Shown: positions 42,162-51,314, numbered from the stretch's first letter. The stretch: DNA of 64,000 nt from Candidatus Udaeobacter sp. (GCA_035255865.1 DATEZD010000177.1:3299-67298), one strand, 5' to 3'. Notes: generated by a model not told the origin, from the sequence alone. A program made the numbers and translations.

Positions 42162-44137
42162 ATGACGACACGCATTGGCTCGAAGCGAATCAACAATATT
42201 TGATGCATGCCATTGGACGAGTGCGCGCTCTGTTGGAAGGACGCGCCACCGTCCGACCAGCAACGGAAGGTAGGGCTGACAGTCCCCTGGCCGCAGAAGA
42301 CGGCGCGCATCCCGCGACTGCGGGACACCCTACCACGCCGCCACCAGCGCTCGACACGCTTTGTGCCGCCTTTGGCCTATCGCCTTTCGAGCGCGACGTG
42401 CTGCTGTTGTGCGCTGGCATCGAGTTGGATTCCAAGTTCGTGTCGTTGTGTGCAACCGCGCACGGCGACACGACGCGGGCATACCCAACGTTCAGTCTCG
42501 CGCTCGGGGCATTACCCGATCCGCACTGGAGCGCGCTTGCGCCGAATGCACCGCTACGCCGGTGGCGTCTCGTGGAAGTTAGCAACAGCAATGCATTGAC
42601 GACGAGTCCTCTCCGAATTGACGAACGCATACTGCATTATCTCACGGGTGTTTCGCATCTCGACGATCGGCTCGCCGGCTTGGTCGAGCCGGTAGGCATG
42701 GCAGGCGAATTGGTGCCTTCACAGCGCGTCCTTGTCGAGCGCGTGAAGCAATCCTGGTCGAACCGGAAAAAAATTTCCGAACTTCCTGTGGTGCAACTGT
42801 GCGGCGATGAATCCGTCACCAAACACGCGATTGCTGCGGCTGCATGCACGTCGCTCGGTTTGAATCTTCATCAGATTTTGGCGTCATCGCTGTCGCAGGA
42901 CCCGCGCGAGATGGACGCGCTGATTCGCTTGTGGCAGCGTGAGGCCGCATTAAGCACAAGCGCGCTATTAATTGACGTGCATGATATGGACGGCGCCGAT
43001 GCCGCTCACACAAGCGCCGTGAACCGGCTGATTGATCATCTCACTGCACCTTTACTTTTGAGCACACGCGTGCGTTGGAAAAATACGAGTCGCTTGATGT
43101 TGACTGTGGATGTTTCCAAGCCAACAGCGGACGAACAGCACGCGCTGTGGCAACATGTGCTCGGCGCTCACGCCGCTTCCTTGAATGGAAAACTGGATGC
43201 GCTGGTCTCGCAGTTTGACCTCAGCGCATCGAGCATTCGGGCCGCCGCGATGAACGGCCAATCGGACGAACGTTCCCCTGAGTGGGCGACGCTTTGGGAT
43301 TCCTGCCGGATGCAGACGCGTCCGCGATTGGACGATTTAGCCCAGCGCATTCAGCCGCTCGCAACTTGGGATGAATTGGTGCTACCCGATGCGCGGCGCG
43401 TCACCTTGCGAGAGATCGCTGCGCACGTGCGGCGGCGTTATCAGGTGTACGAGACATGGGGCTTCGCGAGCAAAAGCGCGCGGGGTCTGGGGATTAGCGC
43501 GCTGTTCGCCGGCGCAAGCGGCACGGGCAAGACGATGGCGACCGAAGTGCTCGCCAATGAATTGCGGCTCGATTTGTATCGTATCGATCTGAGCCAGGTC
43601 GTCAGCAAATACATCGGCGAGACTGAAAAGAATTTGCGGCGCGTGTTCGACGCGGCAGAGGAAGGCGGCGCGATTTTGTTGTTCGACGAAGCGGACGCGC
43701 TGTTCGGAAAACGCAGCGAGGTTAAGGACAGTCACGATCGGTACGCGAACATCGAGATCAGTTATCTGTTGCAGCGCATGGAGGAATATCGCGGACTGGC
43801 AATTCTCACCACGAACATGAAAGAGGCGCTCGACAGCGCGTTTCTCAGGCGGATCCGATTCATTGTGCATTTCCCGTTTCCCGATCTCGCTGCGCGGGAG
43901 GAAATCTGGCGACGCATTTTTCCCGACCAGACGCCGACTGAAGAATTGGCGATCGACAAACTGGCGCGTCTCAACGTCGCGGGCGGTAATATCCGGAACA
44001 TTGCTCTCAACGCAGCGTTCCTCGCCGCTGACGCGAACGAGCCGGTGCGAATGAACCACGTCTTGCGCGCCGCGCGCACCGAGTACGCGAAAATCGAGAA
44101 ACCGCTCACCGACGCGGAGATCGGAGGCTGGCAATGA
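42158..44137 (+). CDS. AAA+ ATPase (Afp15/Pvc15-like eCIS assembly/loading ATPase)
   Basis: C-terminal AAA module: LFAGASGTGKTMATEVLANEL (Walker A), AILLFDEADALFGKRS (Walker B) and LAILTTN (sensor 1). An N-terminal domain of about 380 aa has unknown fold. Confidence 0.9.
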   Translation: MNDDTHWLEANQQYLMHAIGRVRALLEGRATVRPATEGRADSPLAAEDGAHPATAGHPTTPPPALDTLCAAFGLSPFERDVLLLCAGIELDSKFVSLCATAHGDTTRAYPTFSLALGALPDPHWSALAPNAPLRRWRLVEVSNSNALTTSPLRIDERILHYLTGVSHLDDRLAGLVEPVGMAGELVPSQRVLVERVKQSWSNRKKISELPVVQLCGDESVTKHAIAAAACTSLGLNLHQILASSLSQDPREMDALIRLWQREAALSTSALLIDVHDMDGADAAHTSAVNRLIDHLTAPLLLSTRVRWKNTSRLMLTVDVSKPTADEQHALWQHVLGAHAASLNGKLDALVSQFDLSASSIRAAAMNGQSDERSPEWATLWDSCRMQTRPRLDDLAQRIQPLATWDELVLPDARRVTLREIAAHVRRRYQVYETWGFASKSARGLGISALFAGASGTGKTMATEVLANELRLDLYRIDLSQVVSKYIGETEKNLRRVFDAAEEGGAILLFDEADALFGKRSEVKDSHDRYANIEISYLLQRMEEYRGLAILTTNMKEALDSAFLRRIRFIVHFPFPDLAAREEIWRRIFPDQTPTEELAIDKLARLNVAGGNIRNIALNAAFLAADANEPVRMNHVLRAARTEYAKIEKPLTDAEIGGWQ

Positions 44138-49209: not shown

Positions 49210-51314
49210 TGATGAGGACAACACAGAGAACACCGACGGCAAAAACCAGTGCAACGACGCGAATGCCCGCGCGTTTGCAGCGATTCGCGAGCAGTCCCGC
49301 GCCATTCAGCACGGTGCCGCCGATTGTTAATGAAGTGCTGAGTTCGCCTGGCCGCTCGCTCGACGGCGCGACCGGGCTGCTGCAACGCAAGTGCGCCTGC
49401 GGCGGAACGCCCGGTCCGACTGATGAATGCGAGGAGTGCCGCAAGAAACGGCAGTCGAAATCTTTAGCACACGGTGCTGGTCACGATTTGCATAGAATAC
49501 CGGTCGGTCTGCAACCAAAGCTCACAATCAATCAGCCCGGCGATCGGTTCGAGCAGGAAGCGGATCGATTGGCCGATTACGTGGTGAGCGGTCGTAGCTC
49601 GGTGACACCATCTTCACTTTCGCCAATCGGGTCTGCTCATGTTCAGCGCGAAGATGCGCAGCCGCCGGCTCCGAAGTCTAATAATTACGACGAGGCGGTT
49701 AAGGAATCGGCCAGCGACAAGTATCGCGTGAAAACCGCCCGCATCGCAGCTGAACAAGCAAAGTTCAGGGAAGGATTGAAAACGCCCGGGCAGAAGGCAG
49801 AAGACAAGGCGTTTTGGGATGCCTATTGGCGGACCAAAACGAGCGATCCCTTGAACCCGCTGGCGCGGCCCGGCGTTTTTAATCCAACTGAGCGGAAGAA
49901 AGAGGAAGACCTGCTCCATCGCAAATCGCCTAACGAATCCTCAGGTCCTGCGGCTGCGCCGCCAATTGTGCACGAGGTGCTCGCTGAGAGCGGTCAGCCA
50001 CTCGATGCGCCGACGCGAGGGTTCATGGAAGAGCGATTCGGCCATGACTTCGGCCACGTGCGTGTCCATACCGATGTGAAGGCCGCGGAGGCGGCGCGGG
50101 CAGTGAATGCCCACGCATATACCGTGGGACACCACGTCGTCTTTGGAGCGGGATTCTATTCACCCATCACCGGAGAAGGACAAAAACTAATCGCGCACGA
50201 GCTAGCGCATGTGGTGCAACAACGTACCGGAGGAGCCCAAGCAGCTCAACTTCAGCGAAAGCCGGCGCCGGCAACAACCAAGCCTAGCCTGGAAGAATCA
50301 GACAAAAGCTGGATCAAGGCTTTTGGGCTGCGCAAATGGTTGAAAGGGGTCATCAGCGGCTGGCGGGACACTCAAGCGCAGTACGAGGAAGCGACTCCGG
50401 CGACGTTTCATCCGACGGAAGATCTTTTGCTGGGTATTCTCACAGCTGCTCGGAGTAGAATCGATCTGGGCGAGCAGCAGATCAAAACCGAGTTGAATGG
50501 TGATCCGCCGCTTCTGAAAGAGTTTCGGGATGCGTATCGACAGATGATTTCAGTGGTCGTACCGAAGTTCGCGTCATTAACCGGAAAAACTGCGAACGAG
50601 GTTTTCCAAGCGCATCGCGCGCAGATACCCGAGTGGGCGCTGCCTGCGACCATCGGGGCAACTTCATCAAAGACGGAACAAGCCACGGCCGGGTGCAAGA
50701 CGCTATCGTTCGCGGATTTCAAGGGCGTGGCGCCGGTGGGCACCATCAGGGCAGCCGACACCGAGTACGACTACACGCCATCGACCATCAAGACTGGGGA
50801 CACCGTCACTGCGGTTTTCGACAGCCCGTCGTCGTGGGTCCAGCCGAGGTATGCGAAGCCTACAGATCGCAAGGCCACAGGTCTGGACAAGAAGGTGTCC
50901 GATTGCGAGGACTTCCTGAAGAAGAACCCGGGCGGCAGTTGGGATGGGCCGAAGGCCACGGGGCCGAAATGTGCCGCGGCAGCACCGTTCCCCAACACAG
51001 CTGGGATCACAGCGGCAGCTGACTGCGATCCGAAGATAGGAGTGGCAATCGAGAAGTGGCAGTCGGCAGAGGCGCCTCGGCTCCTCAAGCATGAGCAGTT
51101 CCACATGAATCTTGCCTGCACGCTCGCGGACAAGGCCACCAAGGCACTGGCCGCGAGCAAAGATCCCGGGACCATTGGGTCTAGGCTAATGACCCAGGAC
51201 AAGGCGGCACGAGGCGATTACGACGACGACACGGCTCATGGCTGTAAGGCCGCGGAGCAGACGAAATGGGAGGGTTTCATCACCGGTGGCCTTACGAAAT
51301 ACCCGATCCCATAA
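49206..51314 (+). CDS. Putative eCIS payload 4: mosaic leader + DUF4157 domain + C-terminal DUF922-like (predicted Zn-protease) domain
   Basis: - Leader and DUF4157 segments: PPIVNEVLSSPGRSLD, then LLQRKCACGGTPGPTDECEECRKKRQ, then INQPGDRFEQEADRLADYVV, then a full DUF4157 (PLDAPTRGFMEERFGHDFGHVRVH...LIAHELAHVVQQ).
- C-terminus: LSFADFKG, LLKHEQFHMNLA and YDDDTAHGCKAAEQTKW match my recollection of DUF922/COG5661. Confidence 0.75.
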   Translation: MMMRTTQRTPTAKTSATTRMPARLQRFASSPAPFSTVPPIVNEVLSSPGRSLDGATGLLQRKCACGGTPGPTDECEECRKKRQSKSLAHGAGHDLHRIPVGLQPKLTINQPGDRFEQEADRLADYVVSGRSSVTPSSLSPIGSAHVQREDAQPPAPKSNNYDEAVKESASDKYRVKTARIAAEQAKFREGLKTPGQKAEDKAFWDAYWRTKTSDPLNPLARPGVFNPTERKKEEDLLHRKSPNESSGPAAAPPIVHEVLAESGQPLDAPTRGFMEERFGHDFGHVRVHTDVKAAEAARAVNAHAYTVGHHVVFGAGFYSPITGEGQKLIAHELAHVVQQRTGGAQAAQLQRKPAPATTKPSLEESDKSWIKAFGLRKWLKGVISGWRDTQAQYEEATPATFHPTEDLLLGILTAARSRIDLGEQQIKTELNGDPPLLKEFRDAYRQMISVVVPKFASLTGKTANEVFQAHRAQIPEWALPATIGATSSKTEQATAGCKTLSFADFKGVAPVGTIRAADTEYDYTPSTIKTGDTVTAVFDSPSSWVQPRYAKPTDRKATGLDKKVSDCEDFLKKNPGGSWDGPKATGPKCAAAAPFPNTAGITAAADCDPKIGVAIEKWQSAEAPRLLKHEQFHMNLACTLADKATKALAASKDPGTIGSRLMTQDKAARGDYDDDTAHGCKAAEQTKWEGFITGGLTKYPIP

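Follow-up and report, generated by a model that had tools for sequence, protein, structure and literature searches.

A 64-kb stretch of DNA from a metagenome-assembled genome (MAG) of an uncultured Candidatus Udaeobacter sp. (Verrucomicrobiota), hereafter the window, carries an operon for an extracellular contractile injection system (eCIS) in which four successive genes encode proteins with a DUF4157 domain. By analogy with characterized systems, we consider that these proteins, P1 to P4, serve a single eCIS as four alternative cargos (effectors), with a probability of about three in four. They are alike in plan: a hydrophilic, mostly basic N-terminal leader precedes a zincin-like DUF4157 head with an intact HExxH motif, which is followed by a variable tail. 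Tandem DUF4157-headed cargo is of a kind already described (AlgoCIS Cgo1/Cgo2; the eCIS-associated toxins, EATs). What our comparisons add is that close relatives have differing cassette sets and that tube-gene relics lie inside the arrays of five loci.

Four successive DUF4157 genes within an eCIS operon

The eCIS operon lies on the + strand, as do all features given below, and extends over about 25 kb (36908–62262, or 36.9–62.3 kb), with a full gene set surrounding the array. P1 (530 amino acids, aa; HJW38675.1; 44436–46028, likely start ATG 44436), P2 (511 aa; 46087–47622, likely start GTG 46087), P3 (481 aa; 47764–49209, likely start ATG 47764) and P4 (701 aa; HJW38679.1; 49209–51314, likely start ATG 49209) together occupy 44436–51314, that is, 6.9 kb or about a quarter of the operon, as an earlier reading of the DNA made from the sequence alone (the sequence-only reading) had stated. 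That reading had started P2 at ATG 45871; GTG 46087 is more likely, as it follows a Shine-Dalgarno-like site and retains a conserved upstream motif. NCBI annotates P1 and P4 as 'DUF4157 domain-containing protein' and nothing more specific. Because the gaps between array genes range from -4 to +58 nt, P1–P4 look translationally coupled, and their tight packing with the particle genes points to co-transcription. Promoter- or terminator-like sites in the array were not commoner than in shuffled sequence. The idea of a multi-effector magazine matches published DUF4157 biology, and genes for sheath, tube, cap, ATPase, spike, PAAR-like and baseplate proteins flank the array.

The shared head and its companion motif

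The sequence-only reading had taken a shared domain of about 90 aa to be DUF4157 and had proposed a profile search as a check. PF13699 (DUF4157, whose Pfam name is now 'eCIS_core'; gathering cut-off, 22 bits) matched all four proteins, scoring 107 bits in P1 (E = 4.8e-31), 109 in P2 (1.2e-31), 90 in P3 (1.2e-25) and 109 in P4 (1.2e-31). The head comprises 88 aa, with pairwise identities of 61–69% among the four copies, and the motifs described earlier (PLDxxTRxFMExRFGHDF..VRVH, AYTVG, VFG and LxAHELxHVxQQ) were all found in the four aligned heads. A small hidden Markov model built from these copies detected no further head in the 64-kb window. The HExxH motif, which reads HELTH in P1 and P3 and HELAH in P2 and P4, was kept in 217 of 217 DUF4157 domains surveyed. 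The tails did not align with one another, and each had its own set of homologues.

A 26-aa motif with the consensus KLTIGAPGDAYEQEADRVAEQVMSGP ('xQPGDxxEQEADRxAxxV'), which we call the 'EQEADR' motif, accompanied DUF4157 in 123 of 221 proteins as against 3 of 11,328 control open reading frames (ORFs). Positions upstream and downstream of the domain were equally frequent (58 cases each), and in 10 cases the motif lay inside it; the window holds all three arrangements: downstream in P1 (~44940–45011), upstream in P2 (46150–46221, as 'NQPGDHFEQEADR') and P4 (49518–49595), and inside in P3 (~48085–48160). In non-significant PDB alignments, the motif resembled the ExxAD motif that provides the third ligand in M48 peptidases, such as 'NEQEADRIG' of BepA, and an hhalign comparison of DUF4157 with E. 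coli BepA aligned the strand and the HExxH helix (P = 2.6e-4, probability 42%). We regard a possible kinship of head and motif to M48 peptidases as no more than a lead.

The role of the head, which the sequence-only reading had called unknown, is partly answered by published work on AlgoCIS loading and on binding in Streptomyces. In AlgoCIS, DUF4157 is dispensable for loading, the N-terminal domain (NTD) is required and Alg15 mediates loading (bioRxiv 10.64898/2026.05.27.728243); the toxicity of Cgo1 is independent of the HExxH motif (PMC8894135; bioRxiv 10.64898/2026.05.27.728243). A small DUF4157 protein of Streptomyces lividans was assayed for binding to spike-complex proteins, and its proposed role is to connect cargo with the core of the baseplate (bioRxiv 10.1101/2025.11.06.686954).

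N-terminal leaders and a possible loading route

Judged from composition, the NTDs of all four proteins are hydrophilic, rich in disorder-promoting residues and devoid of a hydrophobic core; those of P1, P3 and P4 have a net charge of +5 to +10. As had been noted from the sequence, none carries a Sec signal peptide, nor did we find a transmembrane (TM) segment in any of them: the Kyte-Doolittle mean was at most 1.12 for any 10-aa segment of the first 50 residues and at most 1.06 for any 19-aa segment of the whole protein. A leader of the form 'LLQRKCACGGTPGPTGECEECxKKR' (CxC...CxxC) is common to P1 (44501–44577), P3 (47835–47911) and P4 (49376–49452) at 75–82% nt identity and is not present in P2. 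It was found in 33 of 140 DUF4157 proteins from several phyla and may be a zinc knuckle or a loading signal. Leaders and heads of the four genes have DNA stretches in common at 61–82% identity.

AlgoCIS Cgo1 and Cgo2 are encoded in tandem and consist of a disordered NTD, DUF4157 and a variable C-terminal domain; they occupy the tube lumen and exit on contraction (PMC8894135). DUF4157 marks eCIS toxins (PMC8213781, PMC11297309), and the first of these sources describes enrichment of the domain on validated toxins, among them EAT13 of Ca. Udaeobacter copiosus, which has DUF4157 genes as neighbours. By analogy with Cgo1/Cgo2 and with PVC payloads, the N-terminal leader would be a loading signal through which P1–P4 would enter the tube lumen, aided by the adjacent AAA+ ATPase. 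When the sheath contracts, the cargo would be driven onto or into a target cell, and the tails would act there. None of the four would be able to reach the producer's own periplasm, so that no immunity genes would be needed. The earlier statement that no immunity-like small ORFs follow the payloads is borne out: the only inter-cassette ORF (47624–47766) is a 5' relic of the tube gene.

The payload slot in related loci

The array fills a slot that opens with a Pvc15/Afp15/Alg15-like AAA+ ATPase gene (42158–44137; PF00004 AAA, E = 4.6e-27; PF22977 WHD, E = 1.2e-22) and a small ORF of 101 aa (44134–44439), which overlaps both the ATPase gene and P1 by 4 nt, and that ends with an Afp5/Pvc5-like, tube-initiator-like gene (51319–51969; PF19266 CIS_tube, E = 4.9e-5). 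For a survey of the sort that the sequence-only reading had suggested, we fetched 80 genome loci by ATPase homologues at 44–62% identity, 62% being the best in the genome collection; they came from Cyanobacteria, Acidobacteriota, Verrucomicrobiota, Chloroflexota, Actinomycetota, Proteobacteria and methanogenic archaea and are designated here by L numbers. Slots were counted at the 53 loci, window included, in which the ATPase gene was followed farther downstream by a tube-like gene. DUF4157 ORFs, taken from stop to stop such that a frameshift may raise the count and two domains in one ORF may lower it, numbered 0 at 11 loci, 1 at 24, 2 at nine, 3 at three, 4 at five (one being the window) and 5 at one. 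At least one DUF4157 gene was thus present at 42 of 53 loci, and four or more at six. The slots of the Streptomyces loci L059–L078 hold a single giant DUF4157 ORF, the counterpart of the published effector Tme (PMC11126660). In this eCIS clade, a payload slot bounded by ATPase plus small ORF on one side and by the tube-initiator-like gene on the other is the norm, and four copies lie at the high end of what is commonly seen rather than being exceptional. The mid-operon position, earlier described as unlike Afp/PVC, does differ from those systems but is the usual one here.

In about 40 of the 80 loci, a homologue of the small ORF directly followed the ATPase gene, with E-values down to 9e-23; Pfam and NCBIfam searches gave no match. 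Its distribution marks it as a conserved eCIS component, not an immunity gene, and it is possibly a loading cofactor.

A standard slot next to the tube initiator could also house structural proteins, and one or more of P1–P4 might serve mainly as a tape-measure-like length determinant, a lumen plug or an adaptor to the spike and tube-initiator complex, and would in that case be an assembly factor instead of a toxin. The present Pfam name of the domain fits such a role, as do the 42 slots with a DUF4157 gene directly upstream of the tube initiator, the link to the baseplate core proposed for the small S. lividans protein, and the failure to recognize a tape-measure gene among the operon genes scanned (36908–62262). 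In Streptomyces davawensis, moreover, the giant DUF4157 protein Tme, from the same slot, is tape-measure-related and co-purifies with baseplate proteins (PMC11126660). The two loci agree in slot order (ATPase, DUF4157 gene, tube initiator) and in the N-terminal position of DUF4157. Tme, however, is a single protein of ~2,200 aa in which TM helices and a nuclease accompany a tape-measure-like region, whereas P1–P4 have 481–701 aa and no hydrophobic segments (19-aa hydropathy at most 1.06) and do not resemble a Tme-type ORF (~2,000 aa, TM helices, tape-measure-like region). AlgoCIS particles without Cgo1/Cgo2 still assemble, with empty tubes (PMC8894135). The slot lacks a DUF4157 gene at 11 of 53 loci, copy number ranges from 0 to 5, cassettes vary between close relatives in a way that a structural protein would not, and the tail of P1 is enzyme-like. 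We regard a mainly structural role as unlikely.

The P1 tail resembles GH19 enzymes

P1 is composed of a basic NTD with the Cys leader, DUF4157 (44631–44894), the 'EQEADR' motif and a tail (~45231–46025) that the sequence-only reading had called GH19-like. Pfam did not bear this out, as PF00182 gave no match to the tail at E up to 10 and matched only 4 of 20 of its relatives, at E = 0.043 or weaker. The assignment did stand in a comparison of a profile of 20 P1-tail sequences with the PDB, which matched the GH19 endolysins 9ms6 (7.8e-8) and 4ok7 (6.9e-6), followed by 8p8e and 9eoi (both 1.9e-5) and by GH19 chitinases (2e-3 to 1e-2). In the 20-sequence alignment, E65, G120, G122, P123, Q125 and T127 were invariant, and E74 and R121 were at least 90% conserved. 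The marks of GH19 are thereby kept: the two catalytic Glu residues (in 'AFIES', invariant, and in 'FTE', at least 90%) and a GRGPxQxT segment (GRGxxQxT). Members of the P1 cluster are named 'predicted chitinase' in IMG. The tail is probably a GH19-type glycosidase, cutting peptidoglycan or chitin.

A library-wide phmmer search found 186 representatives of P1-tail relatives at E ≤0.001, and 66 of the best 150 of these 186 also carried DUF4157. This bears on the possibility that P1 alone is not injected and that its endolysin-like tail lyses the producer for particle release. Its nearest solved relatives are indeed phage endolysins (9ms6, 4ok7), no other lysis gene was recognized among the operon genes scanned, and eCIS particles are freed by lysis of the producer, to which it has been suggested that EATs might contribute (PMC8213781). 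P1, however, has the same leader and head as its neighbours, has no signal peptide or holin partner and hence no route to its own cell wall, and is joined by the 66 relatives in its fusion to DUF4157. We consider release by P1 quite improbable and keep P1 among the cargo candidates.

Tails of P2, P3 and P4

Searches of Pfam and NCBIfam with the tails alone gave nothing significant, and searches of the PDB with family profiles for P2, P3 and P4 returned only non-significant matches (BepA around the head HExxH, MotY and a designed Zn protein). The tails of P1 and P3 recur at other loci, on other heads or at other positions.

Downstream of its 'EQEADR' motif, P2 consists of DUF4157 (46264–46527), an alpha/beta subdomain (~46624–46926), a Pro-rich linker and a domain with a beta-sheet and a helical hairpin (~47029–47613). 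Its tail had 43 homologues, of which 28 carried PF13699; the other 15 were shorter sequences on short contigs. AlphaFold2, given the homologue alignment, modelled the tail with a mean predicted local distance difference test (pLDDT) score of 82: residues 15–115 form the alpha/beta subdomain, a disordered Pro-rich linker follows, and residues 150–344 form a long antiparallel beta-sheet with a two-helix hairpin. Foldseek comparison of the model with the PDB and BFVD yielded nothing at E <0.02; the best matches, with TM-scores <0.2, were to beta-barrel membrane proteins and to helical hairpins. The tail of P2 may represent a toxin fold unseen in either database. The first subdomain gave weak OmpA-like hints (MotY, E = 0.35; SiiA peptidoglycan-binding domain, E = 0.88). 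The tail matched no Pfam family, PF00691 included, and a true OmpA domain (PF00691) is present in a relative's cassette at a similar position.

P3 has an NTD with the Cys leader, DUF4157 (47953–48357) and a tail (48370–49206) with the HETKH sequence (48829–48843) that the sequence-only reading had pointed out; the motif is real and conserved in homologues, together with a GHEEHC segment and six Cys. The head is split after 'RFG' by a 45-aa insert (48040–48174), and the PF13699 match covers profile positions 15–77 only. The insert, which contains a degenerate 'DDYERAADAR' form of the companion motif ('DDYERAADARAGQVM'), was kept in 10 of 10 P3-like homologues. Homologues of the tail comprised close ones at 82% identity or more and one at 39% (in L024); a metagenome scan for relatives added only sequences at 76–92% identity and left the alignment no deeper. 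With this shallow alignment, AlphaFold2 reached a mean pLDDT of 44, and the model was unusable. The distant homologue is a segment of a 1,627-aa protein (L024 12276–17156), in which it lies between two DUF4157 domains; this protein appears to be a fusion of two neighbouring cassettes.

The 250-aa NTD of P4 includes a partial DUF4157 5' fragment (49313–49368), the Cys leader and the 'EQEADR' motif; DUF4157 (49959–50222), a helical linker module (~50286–50678) and a DUF922-like domain (~50730–51311) with HEQFH (51090–51104) follow. The P4 tail had homologues at 65–81% identity. Its helical linker (~130 aa) was also found in P0061–P0063, proteins with other C-termini, and by this comparison the P4 'tail' is built of exchangeable modules. 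The sequence-only reading had predicted a DUF922-like Zn-protease. HEQFH and a weak similarity are there, but the C-terminus scored 14.9 bits against DUF922 (PF06037; E = 0.029), below the cut-off of 27 bits, and its best relative 22.5 bits (E = 1.3e-4); a single-sequence PDB search with the tail gave no match. The C-terminus is DUF922-like rather than a family member, and we assign it, weakly, as a putative Zn-peptidase. Within the 'RLQRKCACGG' leader of P4 sits a 56-nt partial DUF4157 start (PPIVNEVLSSPGRSLDGAT) with 77% nt identity to that of P1. The fragment has the look of a scar left when heads recombined; repeats D1–D3 also involve P4.

Cassette turnover and tube-gene relics

Cassette sets vary among the close relatives L081, L082, L084, L087 and L090, soil-metagenome contigs with 78–90% identical copies of single cassettes. 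After the small ORF, L081 and L090 have a P3-like cassette, a 423-aa cassette, an OmpA cassette and the tube gene. L082 has an ATLF-like cassette, a 99-aa ORF, a P4-like cassette, a tube relic and another cassette, and L084 has an ATLF-like cassette, an 86-aa ORF, a 460-aa cassette, a cassette with the P4 linker and another DUF922-like end, and the tube gene. The place of P3-like cassettes in the array varies: first, middle or second to last. Judged by these relatives, the array is a hypervariable cassette region.

Between P2 and P3, the first 20 codons (47624–47684) of a 46-codon ORF (47624–47766) form a relic of the 5' end of the tube gene. This repeat (D4) covers 62 nt at 77% identity to 51318–51379, or 81% over a 63-nt local alignment. 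The first 23 nt of the relic are an exact duplicate with only two occurrences in the window, and 100 shuffles gave 0 matches. The stop codon of the ORF overlaps the start of P3 (TGATG). Similar relics lie at L082 8866–9024 and L083 3110–3268 (45 codons, the resident gene being beyond the contig end), L011 15050–15191 (47 codons, 92% nt identity to the resident tube gene), L001 11606–11892 (91 codons, 81%) and L004 16915–17220 (101 codons, 75%); the relic of the window is 81% identical to its resident gene. At these five loci, relics of 20–101 codons begin with the native ATG directly 3' of the stop of a DUF4157 gene, continue in an open frame up to a variable break codon and are followed by the next DUF4157 gene; the stop of the L082 relic overlaps the start of the next gene, as in the window.

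From their form and position, the truncated tube-gene 5' copies appear to be scars left by the capture of cassettes. Homology for recombination would be supplied by the leaders and heads and, on the flanks, by the small ORF and the tube gene. Segments of foreign slots, coming from other eCIS operons, would be captured whole at the tube-gene boundary by one crossover in the conserved tube gene, as the homology anchor, or farther downstream, and by an imprecise left junction inside the resident tube gene. Each capture would leave behind an open, truncated tube-gene 5' end coupled to the new cassette, and the magazine would grow while older cassettes are kept intact. Duplication in situ followed by replacement would be a poorer fit to the equally diverged heads than capture. 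A recent duplication of a two-gene unit (P1–P2 to P3–P4) was considered and rejected, since the heads are all about equally diverged (61–69%). Taken jointly, the propositions that the slot is a dedicated capture site, that 'EQEADR' and DUF4157 form a permuted M48-like gluzincin processing cargo and that P2 has a new toxin fold make up a picture that is possible but that we hold to be less likely than not.

The scars could also be taken to mean that the array is evolutionary debris, that is, genes that arose by duplication or capture and have since lost expression or function. There is a tube-gene relic, a DUF4157 fragment in the leader of P4 and a split domain in P3. Yet the four ORFs are intact with HExxH conserved in each, the tails have conserved homologues (n = 43 for P2; 82–90% identity for P3; 65–81% for P4), the P3 insert is kept in all P3-like homologues, and the relic ORF retains translational coupling. 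We find this explanation very hard to credit.

Several smaller observations concern the same arrays. The array of L001 contains a second, frameshifted copy of the small ORF (7557–7834). We looked for a relic of the small-ORF 3' end in the stretch between the tube relic and P3, and found no similarity. The ORFs behind the ATLF-like cassettes (L082 6634–6933, 99 aa; L084 3456–3716, 86 aa) have no counterpart in the window. The first had no Pfam match at E ≤0.001, and no family is recorded for the second; a role in immunity or as chaperones is conceivable for both.

Comparison with known systems

P1–P4 resemble Cgo1/Cgo2 of AlgoCIS in their tandem arrangement in an eCIS cluster with an AAA+ ATPase, in the order of leader, DUF4157 and variable C-terminus, in having one putative metalloprotease tail and in the absence of immunity genes. 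They differ from them in number (four genes instead of two), in eCIS clade, gene order and tails, in being known from genes alone, and in leaders with a conserved CxC...CxxC motif. With the DUF4157 EATs of Geller 2021 and Danov 2024, which include EAT13 of Ca. Udaeobacter copiosus, they have in common the genus and operon type, an N-terminal DUF4157 on polymorphic toxins and the frequent absence of immunity genes. EAT13 itself has no DUF4157 and is an actin cross-linker, unlike the proteins of the window, and the tails described here (GH19-like, P2 fold, P3 and DUF922-like) are not among the validated EATs in the available parts of PMC8213781 and PMC11297309.

The following points weigh against a cargo role, or against parts of it. 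The role is read from the genes of an uncultured MAG, by analogy. The tails of P2 and P3 are without an assignable activity after profile searches, the fold search for P2 and the modelling of P3, and the peptidase assignment of P4 is below the Pfam threshold. The CxC...CxxC leader could fold as a zinc knuckle instead of being a disordered signal, and the absence of a recognizable tape-measure gene leaves room for a structural role of one of the four proteins. Finally, the capture mechanism is inferred from scars alone, and, because the divergence of the four heads is about equal (61–69%), their history cannot be put in order.

Orphan toxin arrays of Rhs and CdiA-CT systems likewise combine constant N-terminal parts with swappable C-terminal toxins, vary between close strains and contain fragments of conserved genes as recombination scars. 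Unlike in those arrays, each cassette here is a complete gene in an operon, there are no immunity genes, and the apparent scars are 5' pieces of a downstream structural gene, that of the tube, and not of the toxin gene. Among predicted eCIS toxins, those with a DUF4157 head form the largest pool, and most of their tails are unannotated. To this pool, the window contributes one documented array of four cassettes, two or three uncharacterized tail families, one of them with a confident orphan-fold model, and scar evidence on how payload arrays may be assembled. It provides four toxin candidates from an abundant, uncultured soil genus. The boundaries of leader, head, linker and tail, together with the putative capture scars, would mark natural points of cargo exchange and could be useful for programmable injection systems. 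The GH19-like tail, the possible OmpA-like subdomain of P2 and VanY/M14 in a relative hint at bacterial or fungal cell walls as targets, which would bear on the ecology of Ca. Udaeobacter.

Neighbouring genes and an isolated array

Upstream of the ATPase gene, the operon begins with a sheath gene (Phage_sheath; 36908–39001) and a gp19-type tube gene (39036–39563; gp19 match), followed in operon order by genes for a PF12322-like protein, a 210-aa ORF without a family match, of which only the ends are conserved in related loci (40261–40893), and a Pvc16_N cap (40890–42161). Downstream of the CIS_tube-like gene are genes for a LysM-like protein and then a 376-aa protein, and the downstream part of the operon encodes a Phage_base_V spike, a DUF4280 (PAAR-like) protein and baseplate proteins including Baseplate_J. 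Long antisense ORFs beneath the array gave no match in a family scan and were judged spurious.

At L088 (7214–13458), three DUF4157 genes stand in a row, one with VanY/Peptidase_M14 and one P2-like, with no eCIS structural genes within 10 kb; to judge from this setting, the trio may be an orphan payload array.

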